This document shows, one piece after another, positions 10,491-40,324 of a stretch of 64,000 nt of DNA (within the stretch, counting starts at the first letter, position 1; each line of letters starts with the position of its first letter). Location of the stretch: positions 2,398-66,397 of the forward strand of contig VBOD01000106.1 in assembly GCA_005877615.1 (NCBI GenBank), given 5' to 3'. The position numbers and the translations under genes were made by a program. The stretch is from Nitrospirota bacterium (GTDB taxonomy: Bacteria > Nitrospirota > Nitrospiria > Nitrospirales > NS-4). The notes under the pieces are model-generated. The model ran no database searches and was not told the DNA's origin. It was given only the letters and a program-made list of their open reading frames with translations.

Positions 10491-10574
10491 TTCTTTTCGC
10501 TATGATGAAGCGGGGTTAGCATTCATCTCCTGAAATTCAGACCGCGGGAGTTGAGTGCAAGGAGGCATGTCACA

Positions 10575-10937: not shown

Positions 10938-10968
10938 CGTGGGCAGATCAACAGGTGACTGATCCTTG

Positions 10969-11481: not shown

Positions 11482-11498
11482 GGAGGCGTCTCATAGCC

Positions 11499-13373: not shown

Positions 13374-13414
13374 CCGCACCGAGAACGGTCTGACACCAGG
13401 CAGGCAGGAAAGCG

Positions 13415-16303: not shown

Positions 16304-16324
16304 TCGCCGTGTAACGAGAGTCGC

Positions 16325-16879
16325 ATGAGCCTGCATGGCCAGAGCAAAGCCGCCGCAGCCGGTGGGGCGTTTGAACGTCTGCTGGTTGTCGCCAGCGGTC
16401 CGGTGAAGCTAGCGCTGCCAGCGCCGATCGTCCAAGGGATGCTGCCGCTGGGGGAGGCCGGAATCAAAGACGTCGCGACGGTCCGGGGAATCACATACCG
16501 CGTGACGTCTCTAGCCGGCCGGTGGGATGGGATGCCTTCCCCCGCGACGCCCAAGACGCTGTTACTCCTGTGCGAATACCGCGGGCAGCACCGCGGGTTC
16601 ACAGTAGACAAGGTGCTGGGTCTCATCGAAGTGGCCCCACGGCAGATCCGACTCTTGCCATCGCACTTTGCCTGCGAGGAACGGACGTGGTTCAACGGGT
16701 TCTTCCTGTTCCGGGGTACAATCGCCTTGTGGGTCAATCCTGACTGGCTGCTCGCGCCCAGCAAAGGCGCCGACGCGGCCGAGAACCTCGAGGACACCGC
16801 GCCGTGCATCACCGACGGCCCGTGTCTGACGGGAGACATCATAGAACTGGAAGTCATCGATGCTGAGAGGGCAGAGTAA
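16325..16879 (+). CDS. Divergent CheW-like domain protein
   Basis: 184 aa. The pattern RLLVVASGPVKLALPAPIVQGML...VDKVLGLIEVAPRQIRLLP...FNGFFLF follows the CheW-domain layout but is divergent. Confidence 0.6.
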   Translation: MSLHGQSKAAAAGGAFERLLVVASGPVKLALPAPIVQGMLPLGEAGIKDVATVRGITYRVTSLAGRWDGMPSPATPKTLLLLCEYRGQHRGFTVDKVLGLIEVAPRQIRLLPSHFACEERTWFNGFFLFRGTIALWVNPDWLLAPSKGADAAENLEDTAPCITDGPCLTGDIIELEVIDAERAE

Positions 16880-17318
16880 GGAAGCCCCAAAGCGTGTCAC
16901 GAACTGGTCACTGATTGTGCTTTCCATCGGCGGTCAGCGCCTCGCGGTTCGGACCGAAGAAGCCGGAGGCGTCCGGCCGTGGACCGACCCCATGCCGGTC
17001 CCGAGCCATACCCCGTTCGTGAACGCCCTCTTGCGGCATGATGAGGAAGTGCTTCCAGTCTACGATCTGGCCGCGCGGTTGAAGCAGCAGGCCCGTGGGA
17101 CGCCGCCGCTATGCCTGATTGCCAAACGGGAAGACGGGATGATGGCGGTGTGTATCGATGGCACCATCCCAACGCTCACGACGATTGATCCCCAGACGCT
17201 CCAGCCGTCCGCCGAACCCGCCCCCGATATCCTGGGATACTGCGTGATCGACGGGGAACACGTCCCGCTCTACTCGCTAGCCAAGCTGGGGCTGCCAACA
17301 ACGATTCATGCTGTATGA
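16860..17318 (+). CDS. Second divergent CheW-like domain protein
   Basis: 152 aa. SLIVLSIGGQRLAVRTEEAGGV...FVNALLRHDEEVLPVYDLAARL...ILGYCVIDGEHVPLYSL follows the CheW-domain layout. It overlaps the previous gene by 20 nt if ATG 16860 is used. Confidence 0.55.
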   Translation: MLRGQSKEAPKRVTNWSLIVLSIGGQRLAVRTEEAGGVRPWTDPMPVPSHTPFVNALLRHDEEVLPVYDLAARLKQQARGTPPLCLIAKREDGMMAVCIDGTIPTLTTIDPQTLQPSAEPAPDILGYCVIDGEHVPLYSLAKLGLPTTIHAV

Positions 17319-17330
17319 CGATGGAGGACC

Positions 17331-18011
17331 ATGCCGACAATCTTAGTTGCCGACGATAGTCTCAGCGTTCGAAAGGTCGCCGAACGGCAGTTGACCGAGG
17401 CCGGACTCGAAGTGGCCCTGGTGTCCAACGGCGAGGAAGCCTTGAAGTGGTTGAACAACAGGCGACCGGACCTGGTTATCGCGGACGTCATCATGCCGGA
17501 CAAGAGCGGGTTCGAGGTCTGCGCGTTCGTCAAGTCGAACGCCGCGCTGGCGGACACGCCGGTGATCCTGGTGTCCGGGTTCGTGGATGAGGAGGTCACG
17601 CGGCAGGCCGAGGCCTGCCACGCCGACCGGATTCTCAAGAAACCCTTCCAGGGGGCCGTTCTGCGCGAGCGAGTCCTCGAATTGCTGTCCGCTCGAAAAG
17701 CTCACACACCGCCGGCGTACGCCCCGGCGACGCCGGGTGAGGGCCTCGGCCGGGGGTTGCGTGACAGCACCACGCCAGCTATGCAGGCTTTGGAAAAGCG
17801 CCTGGCGGAACAGGAAAAGGCGCTGGGGCAGGCATCCATACTCATCAAGGACCTCGGGGGCCGGCTTGGAGAAGCCGCAACGCACACGGCCGAGCTGCAG
17901 AAACGGCTGGAGGCGCTGGAGCTGGCCGTCGCTTCGGCGGAAAAACTCCTGCAGATGCTGAGAGAATCCGTCCGCCAAGCCACGCAAACCTTGGGCCGAC
18001 GCGGACCATGA
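17331..18011 (+). CDS. Response regulator receiver domain with a C-terminal coiled-coil tail
   Basis: 226 aa. Complete REC (ILVADDS...LVIADVIMPDKSG...ILKKPF) followed by about 90 aa of heptad-like helical sequence (LEKRLAEQEKALGQ...LQKRLEALELAV). Confidence 0.85.
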   Translation: MPTILVADDSLSVRKVAERQLTEAGLEVALVSNGEEALKWLNNRRPDLVIADVIMPDKSGFEVCAFVKSNAALADTPVILVSGFVDEEVTRQAEACHADRILKKPFQGAVLRERVLELLSARKAHTPPAYAPATPGEGLGRGLRDSTTPAMQALEKRLAEQEKALGQASILIKDLGGRLGEAATHTAELQKRLEALELAVASAEKLLQMLRESVRQATQTLGRRGP

Positions 18012-18069
18012 CCGCCTTGCTCGCTCCGCCCGTTCGGCCGTCGGAAAACGAGGGGGACAAGCGATAGAA

Positions 18070-19134
18070 TTGGCTACGCCTATGGACACAAGCGAAGACC
18101 AGTTTCAAGAAGAAGTCCTCCAACTGTTTGCCGAGGAAGGGTTGGAGTGGATCAAGCAGATCAAGGTCGCCCTCCAAGAGCTGGAGAGCGGGGTGACGCT
18201 GGATAAGGAAAAGAAGCATTACGACATCATCCTCCGCAGCCTGACCAACCTCATGGGCTCGGCCGCCACCGTCGAGCTGGCCGCGCTCCAGAAACTCACT
18301 CTCGCATTGGTCCCGCTCCTGCAGGCCATGCAGACCAAGAAAGTCCCCGCCAAACCGGAGCACTTCGCCACGATCCGGCAGGGGATCGCGCTCATGTACG
18401 CCTCCGTGCAAGTCCTGCATATGGCGTCACAGCGAACGATCGTCAAGGCCAATCTCGAAAGCATCATGCAGCTCCAGGCGGACGGTCTACAGCGTGCGGT
18501 CGCTAAGGTCCAAGGGATCCCGAAGGCGGCTGGGGCCGCCCCGAAGCGGCCCGTCAGTCCCGAAGCCACCTACCTGGGGAAAATCGTGCAGGCGTTGCTG
18601 GACCTCAAGCACGCGCGGCCCTCCTCATTAGAGCCCAGCAGGAACCTGATCGAGCTCGTGCTCCGCAGATTGCACCGGCTGTCTGACCAGGAATCGGCGG
18701 AGGTCACGGCCGCCTCGGTCGCCAGCATCCTGCACCAAATGGAAGGGCTCGACGAGCGGTTCCTGGAGGAAACCCGGCGCCGGGTGGAGACGTTGAAGCA
18801 GGCCATCGCCGGGCTCAGGGCCGGCACTCGCGATCCCCACGCACAGAAAGCCAACCTTCAGGGCGGTCTGCGGGAGATCTCGTTGTTGTACGAGATGGCC
18901 CGCGAGGTCGGGGCGATCCCGATCGTCCAGTTCTTACATGGCCTGGAAACGCTGCTCCTGGAAGTCGTCTACAAAAGCATGACGCTGGTCCCCCAGCGAG
19001 TTGAAGGTGTGGCCGCCCGCGTGGACTCCCTGGTGGCGATGGCCCAACAATGGGTCGAGATGGGCCGAACCGAACAGGCGGCCATCGAGAAGGCCCTGGC
19101 GCCGCTCATCGACAAGGATCTCGCCCGCACCTAA
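18070..19134 (+). CDS. Helical protein with Hpt-like segments that apparently lack the phospho-accepting His
   Basis: 354-aa ORF (TTG 18070, alternative ATG 18082) and the last gene of the cluster. ILRSLTNLMGSAATVELAAL aligns by eye with the Hpt HxLKGSA motif, with Thr in the His position. This call is tentative. Confidence 0.45.
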   Translation: MATPMDTSEDQFQEEVLQLFAEEGLEWIKQIKVALQELESGVTLDKEKKHYDIILRSLTNLMGSAATVELAALQKLTLALVPLLQAMQTKKVPAKPEHFATIRQGIALMYASVQVLHMASQRTIVKANLESIMQLQADGLQRAVAKVQGIPKAAGAAPKRPVSPEATYLGKIVQALLDLKHARPSSLEPSRNLIELVLRRLHRLSDQESAEVTAASVASILHQMEGLDERFLEETRRRVETLKQAIAGLRAGTRDPHAQKANLQGGLREISLLYEMAREVGAIPIVQFLHGLETLLLEVVYKSMTLVPQRVEGVAARVDSLVAMAQQWVEMGRTEQAAIEKALAPLIDKDLART

Positions 19135-19263
19135 CCCGCCTTTCTAAATTGAGCAATACACTCTGCGGCGTCAGGTTACGGGGGAAACGTATCCGTAATA
19201 ATTCTTGGGCGGGGAAAATTTAGGCGGGTAGTGATCTGTCGGCGAGGCCTTTTCTACTTACAC

Positions 19264-19581
19264 TTAAGTGAAAAATGCGAACCCTGCCAAAATAAGAATG
19301 CCAAACGCGAAACATCCTGCACAGAGCCAAAGACTGATCTGATCCCACATCGGTTCGTACTTGCCTGCGTGATCGAAATGTTTAATATACCGGCCATGAG
19401 CAATTACGCCGAGCAGCACTGATGCAAGTAAAAGACCTGCGGCTGTCTTTATAGCCTTATGTTTTATCCACTCCTCATCACCAAGGAAAATTCCCAAGCC
19501 CAGTAAAGCGATTGATATCGTATTTAGATTAATGAGCCAGGCGAAAATTGCCTTATGCTTTTCGACATCGTCAGGCGTCAT
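19264..19581 (-). CDS. Small integral membrane protein (3-4 TM helices), unknown function
   Basis: 105 aa with a strong AAGGAGGAG SD upstream of ATG 19581. Lies in the AT-richer islet. Hydrophobic segments ISIALLGLGIF, LLLASVLLGVIA and WLCAGCFAFGILILAGFAFF. Confidence 0.5.
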   Translation of the reverse strand: MTPDDVEKHKAIFAWLINLNTISIALLGLGIFLGDEEWIKHKAIKTAAGLLLASVLLGVIAHGRYIKHFDHAGKYEPMWDQISLWLCAGCFAFGILILAGFAFFT

Positions 19582-19609
19582 CTTCTCCTCCTTTAGAAGG
19601 GAGGCAAGC

Positions 19610-20228
19610 CTATTTCACAACTCTCAGCTTCTCTATTGCAGCGTCATCCTCGGTGAACATAATTTGATCGGTTGAATTTTGACCAAAGCTTCTAAAGGTC
19701 GCTTCAATTAACGCCGGCATAACTTGCCGAAGGTTGTTGGAACTGCCCGTGCTGTCTGTCTCCCCCTTCCAAAACGACACTGTCTTTCGTTCCTTCCGCA
19801 GCGTTTGATAATCCACTACGTCTACAAGTAGTTTTCGTTTATATGCTGTGTGACGGCTTGTTGATGTTTGTGAACCAACGACCCCATATTGGGACGGAGT
19901 CATAATAGTTCCACTAGACAGGGCTAGTTGAGGAGGACACTGTCGTAGTACCAGAATCAATTCCATAAGCAATGAAAACAGCCAACTCGGCTGATTCGTC
20001 GTTGACGTACCGGTACCCTCGCTCTTCCATCTTCTTGCGAACCATCGAAGCGTATTCTTGGAAGGCAAGGTCGCTCGTGTTGCCGTCTATGGGCATTACG
20101 GTATATGTGCCTTGGGCGGGAACTGGAAGCTGGGTGTTTTGAAAGCCGTTTACTTGCACATGGTAAAAGCTCCCGCACCCTGGTAGAAATGAGCTGAGCA
20201 ACAAGTAAATTAGAATTGACCTTTTCAT
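19610..20228 (-). pseudogene. DUF4136-like lipoprotein split by a frameshift near 19914-19960
   Basis: The N-terminal part (ATG 20228, AGGAGA SD, MKRSILIYLLLSSFLPGC lipobox) stops at 19914. The typical C-terminal part (YKRKLLVDVVDYQT...VSFWKGET...) continues in another frame down to 19610. Joined, the length would be about 205 aa. A sequencing error cannot be excluded. Confidence 0.45.
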
Positions 20229-20470
20229 CGCTGAGGTCTCCTGTATGGTACAAGTGGTCCTCGTAGATAATTTTCCATTGTCTGTTACTCTAATTTTAAT
20301 ATCAAGAGCGGGCTTACTCCTCGGCAATCTACCTTGCCTTGCAACCTGGTTTTAGTTCTAGCCGCCACTACAATAGTGAGTAGATGCCGTAACACGGCTC
20401 GAAATGCCACTGCGGGTGCCACTGGTTCTCGAAACGTAAAAAAGGGGAGGGCATAACGTGCGGAAAGATG

Positions 20471-20546
20471 TGGTGCCGAGGGACAGAATTGAACTGTCGA
20501 CACCAGCCTTTTCAGGGCTGTGCTCTGCCAACTGAGCTACCTCGGC
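20471..20546 (-). tRNA. tRNA-Phe (anticodon GAA), CCA encoded
   Basis: Folded by hand: acceptor GCCGAGG/CCTCGGC, D arm GCTC-AGTTGGCA-GAGC, anticodon arm CAGCC-CTGAAAA-GGCTG, variable GTGTC, T arm GACAG-TTCAATT-CTGTC, then discriminator A and CCA. Total 76 nt. Confidence 0.95.
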
Positions 20547-20663
20547 ACCGCGCGAGGCTCACTCTTGTACCAAGTTCATCTCCCGAAATCAAGGCGATCG
20601 CTCGTTTAAGCAAGTTCAGGATGGAAAACCTGGGCGGCCGCGGCGGTGTGTCCTAAAAACTAT

Positions 20664-20692
20664 TTGCAAGAGTCATCTGAGAATGTTACATA
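20664..20692 (+). promoter_or_regulatory. Candidate promoter of the Hyf-like operon (TTGCAA-17-TACATA)
   Basis: TTGCAA at 20664-20669, a 17-nt spacer, and TACATA at 20687-20692, about 50 nt upstream of GTG 20743. Confidence 0.35.
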
Positions 20693-20742
20693 ACTGTCGG
20701 GCGCGGATGATTCAACACTAACCGGAGTAATACGTTAGGTTC

Positions 20743-22776
20743 GTGATTCCGCTTTCGCTGTTGGTCGGCCTCATAGGGTACAGCCTCGGCATCCTCCTCC
20801 CGCTGCTGGCCCGCCGCCGTCCAACCATACAGAACATGACGGCTCACGGTGCGGCCTTGCTGGGAGCCGTGGGCGGAATCGGAGTGGGCGCGGCGGGGTT
20901 AACCGCCGAGGTTCCCTACCACGTCAGCCTTCCGTCCTCGCTTCCGCTGCTGAATTACTCGATCCGTATCGATCCTCTCGCCGCATTCTTCGTCCTGCTC
21001 ATATCGCTCTGCGGTGCGGCGGTCGCCGTCTACGCCCTCGGGTATGTCCGCGAATTCTACGGGCACTACTCAATCGGGGCCTTAGGCTCGCTCTTCAACG
21101 CATTCCTGCTCTCGATGACGCTGGTCGTCCTGGCCGACGACGGATTCTTTTTCCTGCTGGTCTGGGAGCTCATGTCCCTGGCGTCCTATTTCCTGGTCGT
21201 GACCGAACACGACAAGGCCGACGTGCGCCACGCAGGCTTCTTTTACTTGATCATGACGCACGTGGGGACGGCCTTCATCCTTGTGACGTTTCTGGTGTTC
21301 TTCAATGAATCCGGCTCATTTTCCTTCGAGGTTTTCCGGCATCCGACACGCCCGTTGCCCGAAGGCATGCGCACGCTGGCCTTTCTCACGGCCCTGATCG
21401 GGTTCGGTGCCAAGGCCGGCATCGTTCCCTTGCACGTCTGGCTTCCGTACGCGCACCCGGCCGCGCCCTCGCACGTATCGTCCTTGTTGTCAGGAGTCAT
21501 GATCAAGACCGCTATCTATGGCCTAGTGCGGGTATATTTCGATTTCTTCGGCGGGGCTTTTCCATGGTGGTGGGGATTCATCGTGCTGACGGTAGGGGCA
21601 CTCTCGGCTCTGCTAGGAGTCATGTATGCGTTGATGGAACACGACCTCAAGAGCCTCCTCGCTTACCACAGCGTCGAGAACATTGGCATCATTCTGTTGG
21701 GGATTGGCGCCGGGATGATTTTTCAGTCCTACGGGCTGGCGTCGCTCGCCGCGCTGGGGCTTCTGGCCGGCCTCTATCATACGATCAACCATGCCGTCTT
21801 CAAGGGACTCCTGTTCATGGGCGCCGGCGCGCTGCTGTCGGCGACGCACACGCGCAACATGGAGGAGTACGGCGGACTGATCCGGAAGATGCCGTGGACG
21901 GCATTCTTCTTTCTGATCGGGGCTGTCTCGATTTCGGCGCTTCCTCCGAGCAACGGCTTCGTCAGCGAGTGGCTGATCTTCCAGAGCCTCTTCCTGAGCT
22001 TCCAGATCCCGGATCTCCTGATGAAGATCATGCTGCCGATCGGTGCGTCCATGCTGGCGCTGACCGGCGTCCTGGCGTTGGCATGCTTCGCCAAGGCATT
22101 CGGCATCAGCTTCCTTGCCATGCCGCGGAGCCGCCACGCCAAACAAGCAAGGGAGGTCTCGCCAGCGATGCGGGTGGGAATGGGCGGCATGGCGCTCCTG
22201 TGCGTGGCGCTGGGGCTCGCTCCGATGCTGGTCGTCCCCGCGCTCGACCGAATCACCGCCCCACTGACGGGAACCTCCATTGCCAACGACCTTCTCTCGA
22301 AAGGGGGATTGGCGCTGACGCCGGTGATGGGGGAGGAGTTCGCAAGCGTCTCCACGCCAGCCCTGGGAGTGCTGCTGGCCGTGATCACCCCCGTCGCCTT
22401 GCTGGGAGCGGTTATTCTCGGGGGAACGCTGCGCAAACGGATCTACAAGACCTGGGGCTGCGGGCTCAACCTGACGTCGCGGATGGAATATACAGCCATC
22501 GCCTTCGTGCAACCGATCAAGCGCGTGTTCAGCACCATCTACCAGCCGACAATCAAGCTGGAAACGGAGTTCCTGCAGGAATCCCGTTACTTCACCAAAC
22601 ACCGAAGCTTCGAAGTCCATATCGAGCCTATGTTTCAGAAGTATCTCTATGATCCGGTCGTCACGTTTACCTTCGCCATAGCCGATCGGCTGCGGGTCAT
22701 CCAGGCAGGAAGCTTGCATCTTTACCTGACTTACATCTTTATCACGCTGGTTCTCCTGTTACTCATTACAGGGTAG
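20743..22776 (+). CDS. HyfB/NuoL-like antiporter-type membrane subunit
   Basis: 677 aa (GTG start) and polytopic. Conserved NuoL/HyfB stretches include WELMSLASYFLV, GFGAKAGIVPLHVWLPYAHPAAPS and HAVFKGLLFMGAG. Has a HyfB-type C-terminal extension. Confidence 0.85.
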   Translation: MIPLSLLVGLIGYSLGILLPLLARRRPTIQNMTAHGAALLGAVGGIGVGAAGLTAEVPYHVSLPSSLPLLNYSIRIDPLAAFFVLLISLCGAAVAVYALGYVREFYGHYSIGALGSLFNAFLLSMTLVVLADDGFFFLLVWELMSLASYFLVVTEHDKADVRHAGFFYLIMTHVGTAFILVTFLVFFNESGSFSFEVFRHPTRPLPEGMRTLAFLTALIGFGAKAGIVPLHVWLPYAHPAAPSHVSSLLSGVMIKTAIYGLVRVYFDFFGGAFPWWWGFIVLTVGALSALLGVMYALMEHDLKSLLAYHSVENIGIILLGIGAGMIFQSYGLASLAALGLLAGLYHTINHAVFKGLLFMGAGALLSATHTRNMEEYGGLIRKMPWTAFFFLIGAVSISALPPSNGFVSEWLIFQSLFLSFQIPDLLMKIMLPIGASMLALTGVLALACFAKAFGISFLAMPRSRHAKQAREVSPAMRVGMGGMALLCVALGLAPMLVVPALDRITAPLTGTSIANDLLSKGGLALTPVMGEEFASVSTPALGVLLAVITPVALLGAVILGGTLRKRIYKTWGCGLNLTSRMEYTAIAFVQPIKRVFSTIYQPTIKLETEFLQESRYFTKHRSFEVHIEPMFQKYLYDPVVTFTFAIADRLRVIQAGSLHLYLTYIFITLVLLLLITG

Positions 22777-23738
22777 TGGAACGCACAATGGCGCAGTCTA
22801 TGACGCTCATTATTCTCCAGACCGTCGTCCTGCTGGCCGTCTCTCCCTTCATCGTAGGACTGATCCGCAAGGTGAAGGCGACGCTGCAGTGCCGGCGCGG
22901 CGCCAGCACGGCTCAACCTTACTACGACCTGCTCAAGTTGTTTCAAAAGGACGTGGTGGTTTCCTCGAACGCCTCCTGGATCTTCACGGCGACACCCTAC
23001 ATCCTATTCGCCTCGACACTGGCAGCCAGCCTGCTCGTGCCCCTTTTCGTGTCGAAGGTCCCGCTCAGTTTCGCGGGAGATATCATCACGGTGGTCTACT
23101 TGCTGGCCCTCGGAACATTCTTCCTGATTCTCGCCGGCCTGGACACTGGGTCCGCGTTCGGCGGCATGGGGAGCAGCCGCGAAGCGATCGTGGCGTCCCT
23201 CACGGAACCGGCCATGATTCTGTCCATCTTTGCGGTCGGCCTGACCGCCGGCTCCACCAATCTGAGCACAATCGTCCACAAGACGGCCTTGCTGGAAGGC
23301 ATCGTAACCGATCCGCCTCCACACCTTATGGCACTTGCCGCGCTGTTCATCGTCACCCTGGCCGAGACTGGGCGCGTTCCCGTGGATAATCCCGCAACGC
23401 ACTTGGAACTGACGATGATCCATGAAGCGATGGTGCTCGAGTATTCGGGCCGGTACCTGGCTCTGATCGAATGGGCGTCCGCGTTGAAGCTGCTCCTCTT
23501 CCTGACGCTGCTCAGCAATGTCTTCGCCCCCTGGGGAATCGCTACAGCGCCGGATCCGATCTGGATGACCCTCGGACTCGCAGTCTGGCTCGTCAAGGTG
23601 TCCGGGCTGGCGGTGCTCGTGGGTGTGATCGAGTCCATGTTTGCCAAGTTGCGGCTATTCCGCGTGACGGATCTGCTGGGCGTCGCCTTCATTCTGTCCC
23701 TCCTGGCACTGATCTTCTTCTATACCTTGAGGGGATGA
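22776..23738 (+). CDS. HyfC/HycD/NuoH-like membrane subunit
   Basis: 320 aa (GTG 22776 or ATG 22788). NuoH-family features: RKVKATLQCRRG, GGMGSSREA, PVDNPATHLELTMIHEAMVLEYSG. Confidence 0.85.
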   Translation: MERTMAQSMTLIILQTVVLLAVSPFIVGLIRKVKATLQCRRGASTAQPYYDLLKLFQKDVVVSSNASWIFTATPYILFASTLAASLLVPLFVSKVPLSFAGDIITVVYLLALGTFFLILAGLDTGSAFGGMGSSREAIVASLTEPAMILSIFAVGLTAGSTNLSTIVHKTALLEGIVTDPPPHLMALAALFIVTLAETGRVPVDNPATHLELTMIHEAMVLEYSGRYLALIEWASALKLLLFLTLLSNVFAPWGIATAPDPIWMTLGLAVWLVKVSGLAVLVGVIESMFAKLRLFRVTDLLGVAFILSLLALIFFYTLRG

Positions 23739-24409
23739 GGATGGGAATGGTCCGGCCAGATATCGGCTCCCAGATGGTGGACCTGTGCGCCGCCCTCCTT
23801 CTCGTGACCTGCTTTGCCATCGTAGCCCAGCGGCGGCTCTCGGCCTGTGTGGATGTGTTCGCGCTGCAGTCCGTCTTCCTGGCCGCCACGGCAGCCTTGG
23901 TTGCCTTCCTGACGGGCATTCACCATATCTACATCGCGGCAGCACTCACCGTGGCGATCAAGGTCATCGTGATTCCACGGATTCTCAAGAAAGTGATCGA
24001 GCGGCTGAATGTCACACGTGAACTGGTAATGAACGTCAATATCCCTGCCGGGCTGCTGATCTGCGGCGCCCTCGTCATCCTGGCGTTCTTCATTACACAG
24101 CGCATCATTCCATTGGGATTTTTATTGACGCGAGATTCCCTGTCGATTGCACTGGCGATCTTAATGATAGGCTTTTTCACCATGATCGCCCGCAAGAAGG
24201 CGGTCACCCAAGTGATCGGCTTCCTTGTAATGGAGAACGGGCTGTTTCTGGGCGCCACGGTGGCCGCGCATGGCATGCCGCTGATCGTGGAGTTGGGAGT
24301 CTTCTTCGATGTGCTCGTCGCGACCCTCATTATCGGGATCTACACCCACCGGCTCCAGGATGCGTTCGACAGCGTGGACACGAGCAAGCTGACGGTGCTG
24401 AAGGAGTAG
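23735..24409 (+). CDS. HyfE-like (NuoK-related) membrane subunit
   Basis: ATG 23735 overlaps the upstream TGA (ATGA). About 224 aa with several TM helices and the FLVMENGLFLGA motif typical of HyfE/MbhE-type subunits. The ORF-track start at 23471 lies inside the previous gene. Confidence 0.8.
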   Translation: MRMGMVRPDIGSQMVDLCAALLLVTCFAIVAQRRLSACVDVFALQSVFLAATAALVAFLTGIHHIYIAAALTVAIKVIVIPRILKKVIERLNVTRELVMNVNIPAGLLICGALVILAFFITQRIIPLGFLLTRDSLSIALAILMIGFFTMIARKKAVTQVIGFLVMENGLFLGATVAAHGMPLIVELGVFFDVLVATLIIGIYTHRLQDAFDSVDTSKLTVLKE

Positions 24410-24416
24410 GCCTGCC

Positions 24417-25898
24417 ATGCTGTGGTCCCTTGTGCTGCTGATCGCTGCGCCCCTCCTGGCAGGGCTGGGAAGCCTCCTGGTCAGCGATCGTCGTGTGGCG
24501 GAGGCGCTTCAATACGGACAGGCCGTGATCCTGTTCGCTGCCGGTGCCCATGTGGTGGCCGGAGTCGGTACGGGCGAACCCGCGACAGTCGGTTTGCTGC
24601 TGTACACCGATGCGCTCAGCGCTTGGCTGGATCTCGTGCTCGCCGTGGTCGGGGCTACCGGGACGCTGTTCGCCGTGGGTTATCTGGATGAGCAATTCGA
24701 CCGCGGGCTCCTGTCACTCAGGCGGTTTCGTCAGTTCTTTTGTCTTTTCGATCTCTTTCTCGCTGCCATGCTCATAGCGGTCAACGTCGCGGACGTCGCC
24801 CTCATGTGGATCGCAATCGAGGGCTCGACTCTTGCGGCAGCCCTGCTTATCGCCTTCGAGCGCAATAAGGCGGCGCTGGAGGCAGGGTGGAAGTTCATGA
24901 TCCTGGGTTCGGTGGGAATCGCCCTGGCATTGTTCGGGACGATCATCCTGTATTACACATCTGAGCACGTGCTCGGTGTGACGAGTGACGCGCTTCGCTG
25001 GTCCGAGCTGTACCGGGTCGCCGGATCCCTCGACCCGACGGCGATCAAGGTCGCCTTTGTCTTCGTGCTGATCGGGTATGGGACGAAGGCCGGCGTGGCG
25101 CCGATGCATTCCTGGCTGCCTGACGCGCATGCTGAGGCGCCAACCCCGGTGAGCGCGATGCTTTCGGCGAATATGCTCACGGTGGCCGTCTATGCCATCC
25201 TACGGTTTAAGGCGGTGGCGGATCGGGCTGTCGGGACGGTGTTCACCGGGAACCTCATGATCGGACTGGGTCTGCTCTCAGTGGCCATCGCAGCCGTACT
25301 CCTCTTGGTGCAGCGCGACTACAAGCGTCTCTTCGCGTATTCAAGCATCGAGCATATCGGAATCGCCCTGATCGGGTTCGGCATCGGGGGAGTAGGTGTC
25401 TTCGCCGGCGCGTGGCACCTGCTGAACCACGCGCTCGCCAAGTCAACCGCTTTCTACGGGGCAGGGTGGGTGCTGCTGCGATACGAACATAAAATGTTGG
25501 ATCGGGTGACAGGGCTTCTTCGGCAGATGCCGCTCGCGGGTTCGGCCGTCGTACTTGCCGGTGTGGCGCTGGCGGGCATGCCCCCCTTTGGACTGTTTGC
25601 GAGCGAGTTGCTGATCATCATCGGAGCCTATGCGGTCAGGCCCGTGGTGGCCTACCTCTTTTTGTCGCTGCTGAGCCTTGCTTTCGCCACTCTCCTGTAT
25701 CACGTGCTCCGGATGGCGCTGGGCGAACCGACAGAAACAGGTCGGGCGGTAGGCGCCCGAAGTCGTGTGCTCCTGTCCACAGCGGTCGTGATCAACTTGG
25801 CGGCGCTGGGTGCGATCGGGCTCCAGGTACCATCGGACTTGGCCAGTCTGTTGGAGGCTATTACTCGCCTATTGGGTGGACGAATGGTGATTCCATAG
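24417..25898 (+). CDS. HyfF/NuoN-like antiporter-type membrane subunit
   Basis: 493 aa and polytopic. GYGTKAGVAPMHSWLPDAHAEAPTPVSA and SSIEHIGIALIGFG are NuoM/N-type signatures. Confidence 0.85.
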   Translation: MLWSLVLLIAAPLLAGLGSLLVSDRRVAEALQYGQAVILFAAGAHVVAGVGTGEPATVGLLLYTDALSAWLDLVLAVVGATGTLFAVGYLDEQFDRGLLSLRRFRQFFCLFDLFLAAMLIAVNVADVALMWIAIEGSTLAAALLIAFERNKAALEAGWKFMILGSVGIALALFGTIILYYTSEHVLGVTSDALRWSELYRVAGSLDPTAIKVAFVFVLIGYGTKAGVAPMHSWLPDAHAEAPTPVSAMLSANMLTVAVYAILRFKAVADRAVGTVFTGNLMIGLGLLSVAIAAVLLLVQRDYKRLFAYSSIEHIGIALIGFGIGGVGVFAGAWHLLNHALAKSTAFYGAGWVLLRYEHKMLDRVTGLLRQMPLAGSAVVLAGVALAGMPPFGLFASELLIIIGAYAVRPVVAYLFLSLLSLAFATLLYHVLRMALGEPTETGRAVGARSRVLLSTAVVINLAALGAIGLQVPSDLASLLEAITRLLGGRMVIP

Positions 25899-25932
25899 TG
25901 GCTGACGTAGTTGAGCGTGGAAGAGAGGTGAC

Positions 25933-27528
25933 ATGATGTCCGATGTGACGACTCCCGTCGAGAAGCTGCGTGCAGCATTCGGAAAGACCATCGCGGACGT
26001 TGCTATCCTTCATGGGATTCCACTCGTACGGGTGGGGAAAGCCGATGTGCCGCTTGTTGCCCATTACCTGCACACCCATCCCGAGCTGCAAGGAACGCTG
26101 TCGCTGCTGTGGGCTGTCGATCATCGTCCCCGCGAAAAGCGTTACGAGCTCAGTTACCTGTTCACGCTGTCGGAGCCACGGCAGTGGTTACTGCTGGCTA
26201 CGGACCTGCTGGGAGAGGACCGGCTGTTTCCCTCCATCACGCCTCACATCCATGCCGCCCAATGGTACGAGCGCGAGATCCGAGACATGTTCGGGTTGAT
26301 CGCGAATGGGCATCCAGACTTGCGTCGTCTCGTCAGACATGAGCACTGGCCCAAGGGGACACACCCGCTCAGGAAGGACTTCATGTGGAATACCGTGTTG
26401 GAGCGTCAACAGGGGCAGTACGCCTTTCGCCACATCGAGGGCGAAGGGGTCTTTGAGGTCCCGGTCGGGCCGATCCATGCGGGGATCATCGAACCGGGGC
26501 ACTTCCGCTTTTCCGTGGCCGGGGAGCCGGTCCTGCAACTGGAGATTCGGCACTTCTGGAAACACCGCGGAGTGGAGAAGCTCTTCGAAAATCTGTCTCT
26601 CGGAACGGGCGTCGCGCTCGCCGAGAAGGTATCCGGAGATACCTCATTCGGCCATAGCCTCTGCTACTGCCAGGCGGCCGAGAGCCTCCTAGGCATCGAG
26701 ATACCGCCACGCGCCCGGTATCTACGTACCCTGTTCCTAGAGCTGGAGCGGCTGCACAACCACCTCGGGGACGTCGGAGCCATCTGCAACGATACCGCTT
26801 ACACGTTGGCCCATGCCCATTGCAGCCGCATGAAGGAGCAGATCATGCAACTCAACGATCGTCTCACCGGCTCCCGATTCCTCCGCGCCGTCAACCGCGT
26901 CGGCGGCATCGCCGTCGATCTCGATGCCGCCCAGCTCGGCCAGGTGGTCGCCGAACTCAATCAAATCGAAAAGGACTTCACCGAACTGGAATCGATCATC
27001 TTTCTCAACGCATCCCTTACGGACCGGTTGGAGACGACGGGCGTCCTCAATGAACGTACCGCCTTCGACCACGGGGTCGTGGGGGTGGTGGGGCGAGCTT
27101 CGAACATCAACCGGGACATCCGCCGTGACCGTCCGTTCGCGGCTTACGATGATCTGCAGGTCAACGTAGCCCTTTACCGTTACGGTGACGTGCGGGCGCG
27201 GATGCGCGTCCGCATGGACGAGATCCACGAGTCCATCCGGCTCATCAGGGAAGTTCACACACGGGTCCCGCAGGGCTCGATCATGGCCCCATCGGCTCGC
27301 GTGCCCGTCGCCGGTGAGTGGGCGCTCTCGGCCGTGGAAGGCTGGCGCGGGGAGATCCTCTATTTCATCATGGCCGGACAGGACGGTGCGATCCACCGGT
27401 GCAAGGTTCGCGACCCATCGTTCGTGAATTGGCCAGCCATCCAGTTCGCGGTCCTGGGGAACATCATTCCGGATTTCCCCTTGATCAATAAAAGTTTCAA
27501 TCTGTCTTACGCGGGGAACGATCTGTAG
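25933..27528 (+). CDS. Fused NuoC-NuoD / HyfG-HycE-like large subunit lacking the NiFe-ligating cysteines
   Basis: 531 aa. N-terminal NuoC-like domain (ERE-IRDMFG) plus a NuoD/large-subunit body (GPIHAGIIEPGHFRF, RHFWKHRGVEK, ELERLHNHL). The L1 position reads VSGDTSFGH (26629-26655). The C-terminus reads NLSYAGNDL-stop (27499-27528) instead of DPCxxCxxR. Confidence 0.85.
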   Translation: MMSDVTTPVEKLRAAFGKTIADVAILHGIPLVRVGKADVPLVAHYLHTHPELQGTLSLLWAVDHRPREKRYELSYLFTLSEPRQWLLLATDLLGEDRLFPSITPHIHAAQWYEREIRDMFGLIANGHPDLRRLVRHEHWPKGTHPLRKDFMWNTVLERQQGQYAFRHIEGEGVFEVPVGPIHAGIIEPGHFRFSVAGEPVLQLEIRHFWKHRGVEKLFENLSLGTGVALAEKVSGDTSFGHSLCYCQAAESLLGIEIPPRARYLRTLFLELERLHNHLGDVGAICNDTAYTLAHAHCSRMKEQIMQLNDRLTGSRFLRAVNRVGGIAVDLDAAQLGQVVAELNQIEKDFTELESIIFLNASLTDRLETTGVLNERTAFDHGVVGVVGRASNINRDIRRDRPFAAYDDLQVNVALYRYGDVRARMRVRMDEIHESIRLIREVHTRVPQGSIMAPSARVPVAGEWALSAVEGWRGEILYFIMAGQDGAIHRCKVRDPSFVNWPAIQFAVLGNIIPDFPLINKSFNLSYAGNDL

Positions 27529-27539
27529 GGAGGCCAACG

Positions 27540-28049
27540 ATGTTTCGCATCCTGAGAAAAAGCCTGAAAACTCGGATCGTCACGGGACGCTACCAAGAGG
27601 CTTCGCCAAGCGACGCCCATGTGTCACAGGAAGCCAGCCGGAAGGCGCGACCCTTTCGCCGGTCGCTGACCATCCGCGAGGTAGACACCGGGTCCTGCAA
27701 TGCTTGCGAGATGGAGATGAACGCGCTTATGAACCCGATCTACGATGCGGACCGGTTCGGGGTTCACATCGCCGCGTCCCCGCGGCACGCCGACGCACTG
27801 GTGGTGACGGGCCCCGTGACGGTCAACATGGAAAAAGCGCTGAAGGATGCGTACCGCACGACGCCCGATCCGAAGCTGGTCATCGCGCTCGGAGACTGCG
27901 CCTGTGACTGTGGGATGTTCAAGGGAAGCTATGGGGTCACCGGCCCCGTGGAGCGCCATGTGCCGGTGGACGTGAAGGTCCGCGGCTGTCCCCCGCGACC
28001 GGCCGAGATCCTGCAGGTTCTGCAGCGTCTGCAGGGACAGCGCGACTGA
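27540..28049 (+). CDS. HyfI/HycG/NuoB-like small subunit ([4Fe-4S] cysteines retained)
   Basis: 169 aa. GSCNACEME, ALGDCACDCG and VRGCPPRP supply the four Cys expected for the proximal (N2-type) cluster. Confidence 0.85.
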   Translation: MFRILRKSLKTRIVTGRYQEASPSDAHVSQEASRKARPFRRSLTIREVDTGSCNACEMEMNALMNPIYDADRFGVHIAASPRHADALVVTGPVTVNMEKALKDAYRTTPDPKLVIALGDCACDCGMFKGSYGVTGPVERHVPVDVKVRGCPPRPAEILQVLQRLQGQRD

Positions 28050-28085: not shown

Positions 28086-28523
28086 CTACATCCGCTTTTC
28101 ATCCAGCTCGATGTTGTCCACCCACGTGGCGGTACGGGGGAGCTGTTCGACGGGAACGCCACGCTTGGCGGCGATTTCAGCGCGGCGCGCCTGAAAGCGC
28201 TGGCGCGCGGCCTCGTCCTTGGGACCGCCGTTCAGGATCCGCTCATTCCACTGGCGAATATCCTCGTCCGTGAGAGGACGGGCATGCGCCTTGACCCAGG
28301 CAAGGATCTCCGCATCGGTCACGCCTTGCAGCACGCGCTTTTCGAAGTCTTCCCCTTTGATCTGGAGAAAGTCGAGCAGGTACTTGTCGAACCCGACCGT
28401 GATGTAGTTGTAGTCCTGGATCAGGCCGGCGTGGCGCATGCGAATCTTGTCAATGAAGCGCGCCAGGTGCGCCATCCCGCCCAGCAGGATCTTCGGGCTT
28501 CGCGGATATTTCTGTGTGATCAT
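28086..28523 (-). CDS. DUF5069-like protein
   Basis: 145 aa. The N-terminus YPRSPKILLGGMAHLARFIDKIR matches my recollection of DUF5069. Its ATG overlaps the toxin gene's TGA (ATGA). Confidence 0.6.
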   Translation of the reverse strand: MITQKYPRSPKILLGGMAHLARFIDKIRMRHAGLIQDYNYITVGFDKYLLDFLQIKGEDFEKRVLQGVTDAEILAWVKAHARPLTDEDIRQWNERILNGGPKDEAARQRFQARRAEIAAKRGVPVEQLPRTATWVDNIELDEKRM

Positions 28524-28783
28524 GTTGTTAAATCCTTGCCGTGAGTAATCATGTGTATATCCACGAGATGCTCGTTCTGATCAATCGAGTAGAAGATCCG
28601 CCACTCACCCACGGCGTATTTGGACAAACCGGGCAGGTCCGGCGCAATCGGCTCGTGTCGGAGATTCTCCACGTTGGAAGCGAGCCACTTGGTCTTGTCG
28701 AGCAACCGCTGGGCCACAGCTTTCTCGATCTTGGCCAGATCATCCAGCACGACCGGCCGATAGGCGATGCGGTACCATGCCAT
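28520..28783 (-). CDS. RelE/ParE-family type II toxin
   Basis: Internal ATG 28783 gives an 87-aa protein (MAWYRIAYRPVVLDDLAKI...GEWRIFYSIDQNEHLVDIHMITH) with typical RelE/ParE size and pattern. The ORF-track extension to 28996 overlaps the antitoxin. Confidence 0.75.
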   Translation of the reverse strand: MAWYRIAYRPVVLDDLAKIEKAVAQRLLDKTKWLASNVENLRHEPIAPDLPGLSKYAVGEWRIFYSIDQNEHLVDIHMITHGKDLTT

Positions 28784-28785
28784 GC

Positions 28786-28989
28786 TTACCACCGCAGACC
28801 GAGTTTCTCGGCCACTTCCTCTCCCGTGATGCGCGCGGAGGACGCCAGGGACTGTTTGAGCCGCGCCCGGATCGCCGAGCCCATCTCCATACCCAGGTCG
28901 GGATCGCCGAGGAGTTCGCGTAACCGATCGTCCACGATCCCCTTGACCAGTTCCCTGAGCTCCTCCAGCGTGAGGTCCGAGAACTTCAT
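28786..28989 (-). CDS. Putative antitoxin partner of the RelE/ParE toxin
   Basis: 67-aa ORF ending 2 nt before the toxin start, which is the canonical antitoxin-first arrangement. The family was not identified from sequence. Confidence 0.5.
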   Translation of the reverse strand: MKFSDLTLEELRELVKGIVDDRLRELLGDPDLGMEMGSAIRARLKQSLASSARITGEEVAEKLGLRW

Positions 28990-29074
28990 GATGCACGTCC
29001 CCGCAATCTGGCTTACAATGAATCCCAGTTAAAACCGCGCAAACCGATCATCAACAGAGCATACGGAGGATGCC

Positions 29075-29359
29075 ATGGCAAAAGCAATCTGGAACGGGGC
29101 CGTGCTCGCCGAAAGCAACAAGTGCGAGATCGTCGAAGGCAATCACTACTTCCCGCCCGATGCAATCAAACGTCAATACTTCAAACCGAGCGCAGCGCAC
29201 ACGACCTGCCCGTGGAAGGGCGAGGCCAGCTACTATGACGTAGATGTGAACGGCCAGGTCAACAAGGACGCCGCCTGGTATTACCCATCGCCCAAGGACG
29301 CGGCCAAGAACATCACTGGCTATGTCGCCTTCTGGAAAGGCGTCAAGGTAGAGGCCTAG
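29075..29359 (+). CDS. DUF427-like protein
   Basis: 94 aa. VEGNHYFPPD...TCPWKGEASYYDV...AAWYYPSP is the DUF427 signature. Confidence 0.75.
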   Translation: MAKAIWNGAVLAESNKCEIVEGNHYFPPDAIKRQYFKPSAAHTTCPWKGEASYYDVDVNGQVNKDAAWYYPSPKDAAKNITGYVAFWKGVKVEA

Positions 29360-29367
29360 GCCGCACC

Positions 29368-30089: not shown

Positions 30090-31328
<1,239 letters not shown>

Positions 31329-31332
31329 AACC

Positions 31333-32253
31333 ATGAGCCTCAAGCGCAAAGACCTGCTCGGCATCCAGGACTTGACGGTGGAGGAGATCCAGCTCGTCCT
31401 GGAGACTGCTGAGTCCTTCAAGGAGGTCACGGGGCGCGAGATCAAGAAGGTTCCGACCCTCCGCGGCAAGACCGTCGTGAACCTGTTCTTCGAGCCCAGC
31501 ACCCGCACGCGGACCTCCTTCGAGCTGGCGGCCAAGCGGCTGAGCGCCGACGTGATCAACTTCGCGGCGTCCGCCAGCAGCGTGGTCAAGGGCGAGACCC
31601 TGCTTGACACGGCCCGCAACATCGAGGCCATGCAGGCCGACTTCATCATCCTGCGCCACCCGGCGGCCGGCGCGCCGAACATTCTGGCCCGGCTGCTGCG
31701 GGCCTCGGTCATCAACGCCGGGGACGGCGGACACGAACACCCGACGCAGGCCCTCCTGGACCTCTACACGCTGCAGGAGAAGAAGCGCGCGTTCAAGGGA
31801 CTGCGTCTGGCGATCGTCGGGGATATCGCCCACAGCCGTGTGGCCCGTTCCAACATCTACGCCCTCGTGAAGATGGGCGCGGAGGTGCGGGTCGCCGGCC
31901 CGCCGACGATGATGCCCCAGGAGATCGAGCGGCTAGGCGTGACCCTGTTCCACAACCTGGATGAGGCGCTGCGCGGCGTGGACGTCATCATGATGCTCCG
32001 GCTGCAGCTCGAGCGCCAGGGCATCGCCCTCTTCCCGAGCATCCGCGAATACTCGCGGCTCTACTGCCTCACGCCGGAGCGGATGAAGCTGGCGACCCCG
32101 GACGTTCTCGTGATGCATCCCGGGCCGATCAACCGGGGCGTGGAGATCGCCCCGGAAGTGGCGGACAGCGTGTCGTCTGTGATCCTCGACCAGGTGACCA
32201 ACGGCGTCGCGGTCCGCATGGCGGTCCTCTACCTCTTATCGGGCGCGAAATGA
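31333..32253 (+). CDS. pyrB: Aspartate carbamoyltransferase catalytic subunit
   Basis: ATG 31333 ([11 protein letters not shown]). [21 protein letters not shown] and HPGP motifs are present. Confidence 0.95.
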
Positions 32254-33518
32254 CCGTCGTTATCCACAAGGGCCGCGTCATTGACCCGGGCCGGATCAAC
32301 GGCCCGGCCGACGTCCTGATCCAGGACGGAAAGATCGCGCAGGTCGGTAAGGGACTGGCCGTACCACCCGGTGCCACCGCGCTGGACGCCACCGGCAAGT
32401 GGGTCCTGCCGGGATTCGTCGACCTGCACGTGCATCTGCGCGAGCCTGGGTTCGAATACAAGGAGACGATCCAGACCGGCACGGCGGCAGCCGTCGCGGG
32501 CGGCTTCACCAGCGTCTGCTGCATGCCGAACACGTCGCCGGTGAATGACAACCAGTCTGTGACGGAGTTCATCCTGGACAAGGCCCGTGCCGCGGGCCTC
32601 GCCCACGTGTTCCCCATCGGCGCAATCACGAAGGGGTCCGAGGGCAAAGAGCTCGCGGAGTTCGGGGAGCTGAAGGACGCCGGGTGCGTGGCGGTGTCCG
32701 ACGATGGCAAGCCCGTCATGAACGGCATGGTGATGCGCCGCGCGCTCGAGTACGCGCGGGCCTTCAACCTCACGGTCGTGGACCACTGCGAGTGCCTGCA
32801 TCTTTCCGAAGGGGGGGGCATGCACGAAGGGTTGGTCGCCACCGAGTTAGGACTGTCTGGCGTTCCGGCCGCGGCGGAGGACGTCATGGTGGCAAGGAAC
32901 CTGGCCCTCGCGGAACTGACCGGCGGGCGGCTGCACCTGGCCCATCTCAGCACGGCCGGCTCGGTCCGGATGGTCCGGGAGGCCAAGGCCCGTGGCATCA
33001 AGGTCACGGCCGAGGCCTGTCCGCATCACTTTCTCCTGACCGACGAGGCAGTGCGCGAATTCAACACCAATGCGAAGATGAACCCGCCGCTGCGAAGCCG
33101 CAAGGACGTGGACGCCATCAAGGCGGGACTGAAGGATGGGACCATCGACGCCATCGCGACGGATCACGCCCCGCACGCGGACTTCGAAAAGCTGCGGGAG
33201 TTCGACTATGCCCCCTTCGGGATCGTGGGGTTGGAAACCGCCTGGGGGCTCGCTTTGACGCTGGTGGACGACGGCGTATTGTCGGTCGAACAGGTGGTCG
33301 CGTTGCTGACCGTGCAGCCGGCCCGTACGTTCGGTCTCGCCAAGGGCACCCTGGCCGTCGGGGCCGACGCGGACGTGACGATCGTGGACCCCGACGCTCA
33401 GTGGGTCGTCGAGCCCGAGCAGTTTCGTTCCAAGGGACGCAACACGCCCTTCGCCGGGTGGAAGCTGAAGGGACGGGTGACGACAACGATCGTCGGTGGG
33501 AGGGTTGTCTATCCGTAA
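32250..33518 (+). CDS. pyrC: Dihydroorotase (long, allantoinase-like type)
   Basis: 422 aa with an ATGA overlap to pyr[11 protein letters not shown] metal motif, DHAPH, and overall amidohydrolase pattern. Confidence 0.9.
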
Positions 33519-33987
33519 GCTCATCGTTGTATGCCAGTGCGTCGAGGTCATCGCGCTGGCGGTCTGGGTGGGGGGACTGGCGGCCATCATCGCGGCTGTC
33601 ATCCCGGCGGCCTTCAACAGCCCGATCCCGATCGAGACGGGGGGCCGGTTGCTGATGAAGACGTTTCACGGATATGACCGGCTGGTCCTGGTCTCGGCCG
33701 GTGCCCTCATGCTCAGCATGCTGGCGCGCGGCGTGGTTGCGAAGGACCTGATCGGCAGACCTGAGTGGGCCATGGCGGAGATCATGGTGATGGTGGCAGT
33801 AGGGTTGACCTTTTACCTCAATCCCGAGGTGGTGCGGCTGCAGGAGCTGGCATTCGCCACAACGGAAACTGAGGCGAAAAAAGCGGCATACGATGCCTTT
33901 TTCCACTATCATTGGATTGCGCGGATTCTCTATCTCAGCAACCTGGGATTGGGCATGACCCTCCTGTGCATGAAGGTGCGGAAATAG
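33496..33987 (+). CDS. DUF4149-like integral membrane protein
   Basis: 163 aa (GTG start, overlapping pyrC by 23 nt) with four hydrophobic helices. The N-terminus [22 protein letters not shown] is typical of the DUF4149/TMEM205-like family. Confidence 0.55.
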
Positions 33988-33992
33988 GCGCG

Positions 33993-35195: not shown

Positions 35196-35201
35196 CGGAC
35201 C

Positions 35202-37054: not shown

Positions 37055-37060
37055 ACACCG

Positions 37061-40320
<3,260 letters not shown>

Positions 40321-40324
<4 letters not shown>

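Follow-up and report, generated by a model that had tools for sequence, protein, structure and literature searches.

The six-gene operon and its known relatives

The DNA analyzed here, referred to as the window, is a 64-kb stretch of contig VBOD01000106.1 from a soil Nitrospirota bacterium. Region 20743-28049 contains six intact, co-directional genes on the + strand, separated by gaps of 0 to 37 nt (Table 1). An initial annotation, made from the sequence alone, had described them as tightly packed genes for Hyf- and Nuo-like subunits, and the Pfam and NCBIfam matches agree with the identities it assigned. The operon encodes an Ehr/Hyq-type complex (Ehr, energy-converting-hydrogenase-related), a six-subunit, nickel-free descendant of the group-4 membrane-bound [NiFe] hydrogenases; the subunits are called EhrB, EhrC, EhrE, EhrF, EhrG, and EhrI below. 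Independent metagenome contigs carry the operon at 99.9% identity, which rules out an assembly artifact.

Table 1. Positions of the operon genes, of key sites within them, and of the adjacent tRNA gene in the window (aa, amino acids)
Feature	Position	Strand	Description
tRNA-Phe	20471-20546	-	Rfam match
EhrB	20743-22776	+	HyfB/HycC/NuoL-type antiporter-like subunit; 677 aa; Proton_antipo_M; NCBIfam NF005086
EhrC	22776/22788-23738	+	NuoH/HyfC/HycD-like subunit; NADHdh PF00146, 1.5e-47
EhrE	23741-24409	+	HyfE-like small membrane subunit; 222 aa; NCBIfam NF008556, 1.9e-29, under cut-off
EhrF	24417-25898	+	HyfF/NuoN/M-type antiporter-like subunit; 493 aa; PF00361, 2.3e-51
EhrG	25933-27528	+	Fused NuoC-NuoD/HycE-like large subunit without Ni-Fe cysteines; 531 aa; PF00329 (Complex1_30kDa) and PF00346 (Complex1_49kDa)
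EhrG, former L1 motif V-S234-G-D236-T237-S-F-G-H241	26629-26655	+	Translation VSGDTSFGH
EhrG, D287 codon	26791-26793	+	Asp in 64/71 clade members; aligns with Nqo4 D139
EhrG, former L2 motif and protein end N-L-S525-Y-A-G528-N-D-L-stop	27499-27528	+	Nearly invariant across phyla
EhrI	27540-28049	+	NuoB/HycG-like subunit; 169 aa; Oxidored_q6 PF01058, 4.7e-32; NF005012 above cut-off
EhrI, C53 codon	27696-27698	+	[4Fe-4S] ligand
EhrI, C56 codon	27705-27707	+	[4Fe-4S] ligand
EhrI, C120 codon	27897-27899	+	[4Fe-4S] ligand
EhrI, C150 codon	27987-27989	+	[4Fe-4S] ligand

EhrB alone passes an NCBIfam Hyf equivalog cut-off (750 bits against the HyfB model NF005086, cut-off 667), and its best match in the PDB is HycC (7z0s_C, 1.1e-80). 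EhrF matches the HyfF models at 3e-125 and up to 419 bits, under the cut-off. A sequence search for a solved homologue of EhrE gave spurious matches only. The first start codon in the EhrC open reading frame (ORF) is GTG 22776, and the near-identical contigs, such as contig L086, call a 316-aa gene from ATG 22788. The EhrE frame is nested in a longer ORF (23471-24409); the 222-aa gene call on L086 agrees with the boundaries given here.

Ehr complexes have been defined by the joint presence of NuoB, NuoD, NuoH, and antiporter-like genes and by a large subunit without Ni-Fe-coordinating residues (Marreiros et al. 2013, as cited in PMC6349859 and PMC4758237). Both features are found in the present operon. 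Ehr has already been described in Nitrospira (PMC10284858, from 2023; PMC12342949 and PMC12542776, from 2025), and the operon is an ordinary member of this known family. The published Nitrospira complex is the same entity, a Hyf-like operon of unknown function whose large subunit lies close to group 4f and lacks the CxxC motifs (PMC10284858); nothing essential differs here. It occurs in about half of the Nitrospirales genomes, where it was earlier named a putative formate hydrogenlyase (PMC12342949), and it was noted in strain NS4 (PMC12542776), which is locus L041 in this analysis. Ehr has also been reported from other phyla (PMC6349859), and the Rv0081-Rv0087 operon of Mycobacterium tuberculosis has been called Ehr-like (PMC6728331).

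The Hyq complex of Azorhizobium and other alphaproteobacterial diazotrophs has six homologous subunits in the same order, hyqB-C-E-F-G-I. HyqG likewise lacks both CxxC motifs and carries the S-G-D motif and an S-Y-[AS]-G-x-D-L end, and the rhizobial HyqG proteins are 39-42% identical to EhrG. In a positional reading from the shared C terminus, the HyqG-specific residues C491 and C497 correspond to I518 and L524 in EhrG, whereas HyqG C258 corresponds to a cysteine that is present, C285. The hyq genes also have a small helix-turn-helix (HTH) regulator upstream and are under NifA control, neither of which is seen in this window.

More distant systems share parts of this architecture. The Escherichia coli Hyc (7Z0S) and Hyf complexes have a fused NuoC-NuoD large subunit and HyfB/C/E/F-type membrane subunits as well. 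Only the E. coli enzymes, however, have the four cysteines, a C-terminal extension that is cleaved on maturation, HycF/HyfH, HycB/HyfA, FdhF, and hyp/hycI; in family scans, HyfA, HyfD, HyfH, HyfJ, and HyfR were absent from the operon and its flanks. Complex I has a homologous NuoB, C, D, H, and L/M/N core, an N2-type cluster, and the Asp at Nqo4 D139, as here. Its fourteen-subunit core, including NuoEFG, NuoI, and NuoAJK, is not matched by the six genes in the family scans. Pyrococcus MBS/Mbx (6U8Y) is also hydrogenase-derived, not a hydrogenase, and ion-translocating. In contrast to the present complex it has 13 subunits and a full Mrp module, and it is much more distant, the MbsL match reaching only 1.6e-28. 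MBS reportedly offers an earlier example of chemistry at, or close to, the proximal cluster. No match to EhrG in the PDB is closer than HycE, and the complex I subunits score lower.

The remodeled site of the large subunit

A phmmer alignment of EhrG with E. coli HycE (7z0s_E, E=1.5e-77) pairs HycE RVCGICGFAHS with EhrG KVSGDTSFGHS and HycE DPCYSC with NLSYAG. From this pairing, the Ni-Fe ligand positions are occupied by S234, T237, S525, and G528, the replacements that the initial annotation had proposed from the two motifs, both of which translate as it had read them. The L1 region of MbhL aligns with EhrG in the same way. Where the N-terminal ligand motif R-x-C-G-x-C-x-x-x-H is expected, EhrG reads K-V-S-G-D-T-S-F-G-H, and N-L-S-Y-A-G-N-D-L-stop stands in place of [DE]-[PL]-C-x-x-C-x-x-[HR]. 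The alignment thus places no cysteine pairs at the L1 and L2 positions, and the claimed loss stands. We considered whether a metal site could have been rebuilt from the other cysteines of EhrG and rejected this, since none of C244, C246, C285, C297, and C490 is conserved in the clade described below. As had been stated earlier, the window contains no hyp or hycI genes, in that a Pfam scan of its 59 long ORFs, chosen by a simple filter on length and third-codon-position G+C that mis-called 28520-29360, found no member of these families. The hyp genes for other hydrogenases are common in Nitrospira (PMC10284858).

A search of 1.84 billion cluster representatives returned 124 full-length relatives of EhrG, each standing for one 50%-identity cluster. 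G235, D236, and G528 are common to 71 of them, here called the SGD clade, while 17 keep all four cysteines and form a sister group. Another four are HycE-like sequences with D-P-C, three of which have a C-terminal extension. A rough neighbor-joining tree, with these four as the outgroup, places EhrG in a large cysteine-less clade beside the four-cysteine relatives. The Ehr label given initially is borne out by the gene set and the ligand-less large subunit. The tree and the motifs stand in for a HydDB classification, and the group 4f assignment of the sisters is taken from PMC10284858.

The putative group 4f-like hydrogenases of the sister group, which are up to 48% identical to EhrG, match it in length and in the position of the last residue (...NKSFELCY[AS]CxDR-stop) and have no C-terminal extension. 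The lack of an extension is thus ancestral to this branch and not diagnostic for a loss of function. The initial annotation was right that EhrG lacks one, but wrong to count this as evidence that catalysis had been lost.

A column-by-column comparison revealed about 50 conserved core positions common to the SGD clade and its four-cysteine sisters, including E187, H211, R265, E270/E272/R273, K520, Y526, and D530. The two groups differ systematically only at positions 234, 236, 237, 287, 525, and 528. The sisters have Cys at 234, 237, 525, and 528; in the clade, position 234 is Ser in 53 members, Ala in 9, and Cys in 8, position 237 is variable, position 525 is Ser in 63 of the 71, and Gly at 528 is clade-defining. 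So is D236, where the sisters have Val or Ala, and position 287 is Asp in nearly all clade members (Table 1) versus Gly in 14 of the 17 sisters. Weaker shifts occur at 523 (E to N) and 531 (R to L). The same site was compared in 80 genome loci, which come from Nitrospirales, Aquificales, Sulfurihydrogenibium, a "Deltaproteobacteria" metagenome-assembled genome (MAG), Candidatus Acididesulfobacter, and further MAGs. At 37-87% identity, hardly any variation is seen in either the motif [KR]-[VI]-S-G-D or the end N-K-S-x-N-L-S-Y-[AS]-G-N-D-[LM]-stop.

As judged from these alignments, the changed site has been remodeled and has not decayed: the new motif [S/A/C]-G-D, D287, and N-L-S-Y-[AS]-G-x-D-L are under strong purifying selection. 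That the complex is a decaying, functionless relic of a hydrogenase is therefore extremely improbable, even though the catalytic cysteines are gone and the complex is found in only about half of the Nitrospirales genomes (PMC12342949). None of the six ORFs is broken, independent contigs share them at 99.9% identity, the replaced site is nearly invariant across phyla at 37-48% overall identity, and deletion of hyq gives a growth phenotype (PMC2650096).

Instead of having lost its function, the site might still activate or evolve H2, whether or not a different metal is involved, as a cryptic hydrogenase of the kind claimed for Azorhizobium Hyq. EhrG shares the SGD motif, the SY[AS]GxDL end, and the gene order with rhizobial Hyq, in addition to the sequence identity given above. 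The initial annotation held that no role had been established for such complexes; although there is no enzymology, the Hyq homologue does have a published physiology (PMC2650096, PMC3357923). In Azorhizobium caulinodans, hyq expression depends on NifA and rises under diazotrophy, deletion of the operon makes diazotrophic growth slower, and the mutants have H2-related phenotypes; H2 evolution below 1 uM O2 was attributed to Hyq and read as the activity of an "endo-hydrogenase" (PMC2650096, PMC3357923). The same authors, however, considered its NiFe site "uncertain, if not unlikely" (PMC3357923), no assay on isolated Hyq stands behind the claim, and the H2 phenotypes could stem from nitrogenase electron flux. 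In EhrG all four Ni-Fe ligands are lost, position 234 tolerates Ala, position 237 is variable, and the clade has no conserved cysteine. Moreover, Ehr expression in Nitrospira moscoviensis is not raised by H2 (PMC12342949). We therefore regard a cryptic hydrogenase as very unlikely.

A gap-free alignment of EhrG with Thermus thermophilus Nqo4 places I186 at H38, G235 at Y87, and D287 at D139. In the complex I structure, Nqo4 D139 reportedly adjoins the quinone head-group site (Baradaran et al. 2013). Since D287 aligns with this quinone-site residue, D236 and D287 are predicted to be neighbors at the former metal site.

In the original description of Ehr, the large subunit is said not to be a canonical NuoD, lacking the quinone Tyr and His. 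EhrG fits this description, with only the equivalent of D139 kept.

Related loci, flanking genes, and the rest of the window

Large subunits that are 67-87% identical to EhrG are encoded in 62 Nitrospirales loci, whose genes follow the same order. Most of the 80 loci, like the rhizobial plasmids, show this arrangement, B-C-E-F-G-I; in the Aquificaceae loci L073 and L075, B-C-E-F lie on the opposite strand. On Rhizobium and Bradyrhizobium plasmids the same six genes stand behind a small HTH regulator. Their large subunits of 503-504 aa read ...SGDSTVAY...CNKSFNCSYSGHDL and fit the description of Azorhizobium HyqG, including C491 and C497 (PMC3357923). On a Rhodococcus plasmid, the NuoB-like gene precedes the other five, and the end of the large subunit is identical (NKSFNLSYAGNDL). 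The operon is also present on a Methylocalor plasmid. The hosts of the Ehr/Hyq sequences seen here include nitrifiers, rhizobia, Aquificales, methanotrophs, and Rhodococcus.

Of the 57 scorable Nitrospirales loci, 14 have a seventh gene, for an additional antiporter-like subunit; the present copy is of the six-gene form. One example is locus L083 (OZ335950.1, a 3.8-Mb Nitrospiraceae genome; 2120-13554), where the extra 514-aa antiporter-like subunit is encoded between F and G and an IS110-family transposase sits between the large-subunit and NuoB-like genes.

The genes beside the operon differ between lineages. Upstream flanks of 4 kb or more are available for 16 Nitrospirales loci; 13 of these encode a sigma54-type response regulator there, and 10 encode a sensor kinase. 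Directly upstream of EhrB, 16 of 31 loci (flank of at least 1.5 kb) encode a secreted protein of about 310 aa with an fn3_3/CarboxypepD_reg domain (e.g., L060 2197-3126, L083 2120-3052), which may serve the complex as an accessory or be regulated together with it. The sigma54-type response regulator and sensor kinase often lie ahead of its gene, and tblastn did not find the protein in the 64-kb window. Genes for a 2-oxoacid:ferredoxin oxidoreductase lie within 5 kb in 13 Nitrospirales loci. In one distant clade (L064-L069), the six genes have those for an FdhA-like molybdopterin oxidoreductase and a NuoF-like protein as neighbors, so that the electron-input context varies by lineage. The window contains none of these: no sigma54 regulator, sensor kinase, 310-aa protein, oxidoreductase, FdhA-like gene, or NuoF-like gene. 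A universal neighboring partner gene was considered and rejected, since flanks are lineage-specific and even the DUF5069 gene next to the present operon recurs only in its closest relatives.

The FdhA-like and NuoF-like neighbors bear on a reading in which the six subunits are the membrane and coupling part of a larger enzyme and the catalytic partner, for example a formate dehydrogenase with NuoEF-like subunits, is encoded elsewhere in the genome. The whole would then be an oxidoreductase that passes electrons from formate or another donor to quinone, with no link to ferredoxin. Complexes of formate dehydrogenase with Ehr have been proposed for Margulisbacteria and Saganbacteria (PMC6349859), and many Nitrospirales encode formate dehydrogenases (PMC12342949). 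Yet no such gene is found in this window or beside most Nitrospirales, rhizobial, and Rhodococcus operons, and a NuoI/HycF-like connecting subunit that could wire a distal module is missing. We consider this arrangement rather unlikely.

The operon is placed between a chemotaxis-type cluster with the tRNA-Phe gene and a DUF5069 gene. Within 20547-20742, no sigma54 promoter was found ahead of EhrB within 2 mismatches of TGGCAC-N5-TTGC, and the window contains neither nif genes nor a sigma54 activator. Scans for sigma70 promoters and terminators stayed at background level, and an Rfam scan found only the tRNA-Phe gene. The region of about 1.3 kb at 19162-20470 has a lower G+C content and short - strand ORFs with weak DUF4136 matches, and it abuts the tRNA-Phe 3' end; contig L086, otherwise 99.9% identical, has only 74 bp in its place. 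Given this position and the short counterpart in L086, the region fits the pattern of a small insertion at a tRNA gene that is specific to this strain.

The chemotaxis cluster (10551-19134, + strand) encodes a receiver protein, CheW, a methyl-accepting chemotaxis protein, a 962-aa CheA-CheW-receiver hybrid, two CheW-like proteins, and receiver and Hpt proteins, and has no evident tie to the Ehr operon. The DUF5069 gene (28086-28523, - strand) lies directly downstream of the operon. For 28086-29360, the near-identical contigs have a ParE-like toxin with a 67-aa partner on the - strand and a 94-aa NTP_transf_9 protein; the 163-aa + strand ORF that the ORF filter picked in 28520-29360 is unsupported by gene calls. 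Housekeeping genes follow at 30654-40324, with pyrB, pyrC, and carA, then S49 and M48 peptidases, then carB and greA, and the L086 gene calls add a PyrR/uracil phosphoribosyltransferase-like gene just before pyrB.

Redox cluster, ion channels, and possible function

EhrI retains C53, C56, C120, and C150, which are invariant in 60 homologues. They have the pattern of the N2/proximal [4Fe-4S] cluster and match that expected for the cluster of a hydrogenase small subunit, so that EhrI is predicted to bind this cluster; the same NuoB-like cysteine pattern has been reported for HyqI (PMC3357923). In EhrB, E142 in transmembrane helix (TM) 5, K224 in TM7, K354 in TM11, and E409 in TM12 are invariant in 45 of 45 homologues, and K255 in TM8 is kept in 39 of the 45. 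In EhrF, E135, K224, and K342 are present in all 24 homologues and E397 in 22. EhrC has invariant acidic residues in its loops and channel (E144, E197, D204, E211, E217, E222, E232, and E286). Because the NuoB-like cysteines and most of the channel residues are invariant, redox-coupled ion translocation has probably been kept, and the complex is probably still a redox-coupled ion translocator, not a hydrogenase.

The channel residues alone would also suit a complex that is mainly an Mrp-like cation/proton antiporter, with NuoB and NuoCD as a redox-sensing or structural cap and no net electron throughput. Two of the subunits are antiporter-like, of the Mrp type, and their channel residues are conserved; the operon encodes no electron input or output module; and the best-conserved new residues of the large subunit have carboxylate side chains, which might work as protonation or electrostatic switches and not in catalysis. 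However, the four cluster cysteines and the approximately 50 core positions that the large subunit shares with true hydrogenases are strictly conserved, beyond what a cap needs, and the phenotype of hyq mutants concerns nitrogen fixation, with no tie to salt or pH (PMC2650096). An antiporter of this kind is accordingly quite unlikely in our view.

Tentatively, and at somewhat less than an even chance, we favor for the redox-coupled ion translocator a reaction from ferredoxin or another low-potential carrier to a quinone-type acceptor, reversibly coupled to ion translocation. A soluble low-potential carrier, most likely ferredoxin, or a partner encoded elsewhere would dock on the NuoB/NuoCD module. 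As the operon has no NuoI/HycF-type subunit or input module, the cluster would exchange electrons directly with the soluble carrier. Electrons would then cross the single [4Fe-4S] cluster, coupled to H+ or Na+ translocation as in complex I, Mbh, and formate hydrogenlyase, with protons no longer the acceptor. On the other side, the partner would probably be a membrane quinone, or possibly another acceptor in the cavity that D236 and D287 are predicted to line. The reaction would be reversible. In a nitrite oxidizer that uses the reductive tricarboxylic acid cycle for CO2 fixation, the reverse direction could turn proton-motive force into reduced ferredoxin; the forward direction, ferredoxin re-oxidation, is equally possible.

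The ferredoxin-demanding lifestyles of many of the hosts, the occasional oxidoreductase adjacency, and the membership of hyq in the nif regulon fit this mechanism, short of proving it. In particular, a NifA-dependent hyq that is needed for full diazotrophic growth suits a role in supplying low-potential electrons no less than one in recycling H2.

Several observations weigh against transfer from ferredoxin to quinone. The canonical quinone ligands of complex I are absent from EhrG (H38 to I186, Y87 to G235), so that any quinone site would be non-canonical. We also considered D287 as a decisive sign of a quinone site and rejected it, since MbhL, a true hydrogenase, has an Asp at this position too. 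The central TM8 lysine of EhrF is Thr or Asn in 24 of 24 homologues (T255 here), and for this reason one of the two antiporter channels may be non-canonical. Adjacency to the oxidoreductase genes is seen in a minority of loci that are not phylogenetically independent, and this window lacks it. By a rough estimate, the three putative channels would move about 3 H+ per 2 e-, which is insufficient for reduction of ferredoxin by ubiquinol; the reverse mode would therefore need menaquinol, a different stoichiometry, or the seven-gene variant. Finally, the literature reports no measured substrate, partner, or ion for any Ehr/Hyq member, and no functional or structural study of Ehr was found in it up to mid-2026.

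A more specific extension of the ferredoxin-linked mechanism assigns a new role to the two clade-specific aspartates. D236 and D287, if buried at the place that the Ni-Fe center takes in hydrogenases and the quinone head group in complex I, might form a new proton-gating or hard-metal site. Ehr/Hyq would then be a minimal, oxygen-tolerant, ferredoxin-linked complex-I-like machine that drives ferredoxin reduction by proton-motive force in aerobes that need many low-potential electrons, namely reductive-TCA autotrophs such as Nitrospira and Aquificales and diazotrophs such as rhizobia. We hold this extension to be speculative and rather improbable. If it were true, the "endo-hydrogenase" phenotypes of hyq would be indirect effects on the electron supply of nitrogenase.

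With respect to the Ehr question itself, this window leads no further than the cultured Nitrospira moscoviensis or Azorhizobium. The comparison does yield a sharper family signature, G-D236, D287, N523, S525, G528, and L531 on an otherwise unchanged hydrogenase core. It also links three literatures, those on Nitrospira Ehr, on rhizobial Hyq, and on the actinobacterial operons. Ehr/Hyq is a widespread "known unknown" of bioenergetics that lies between the membrane-bound hydrogenases and complex I. Its substrate would reveal how aerobes handle low-potential electrons and would shed light on the loss of the metal site in complex I.

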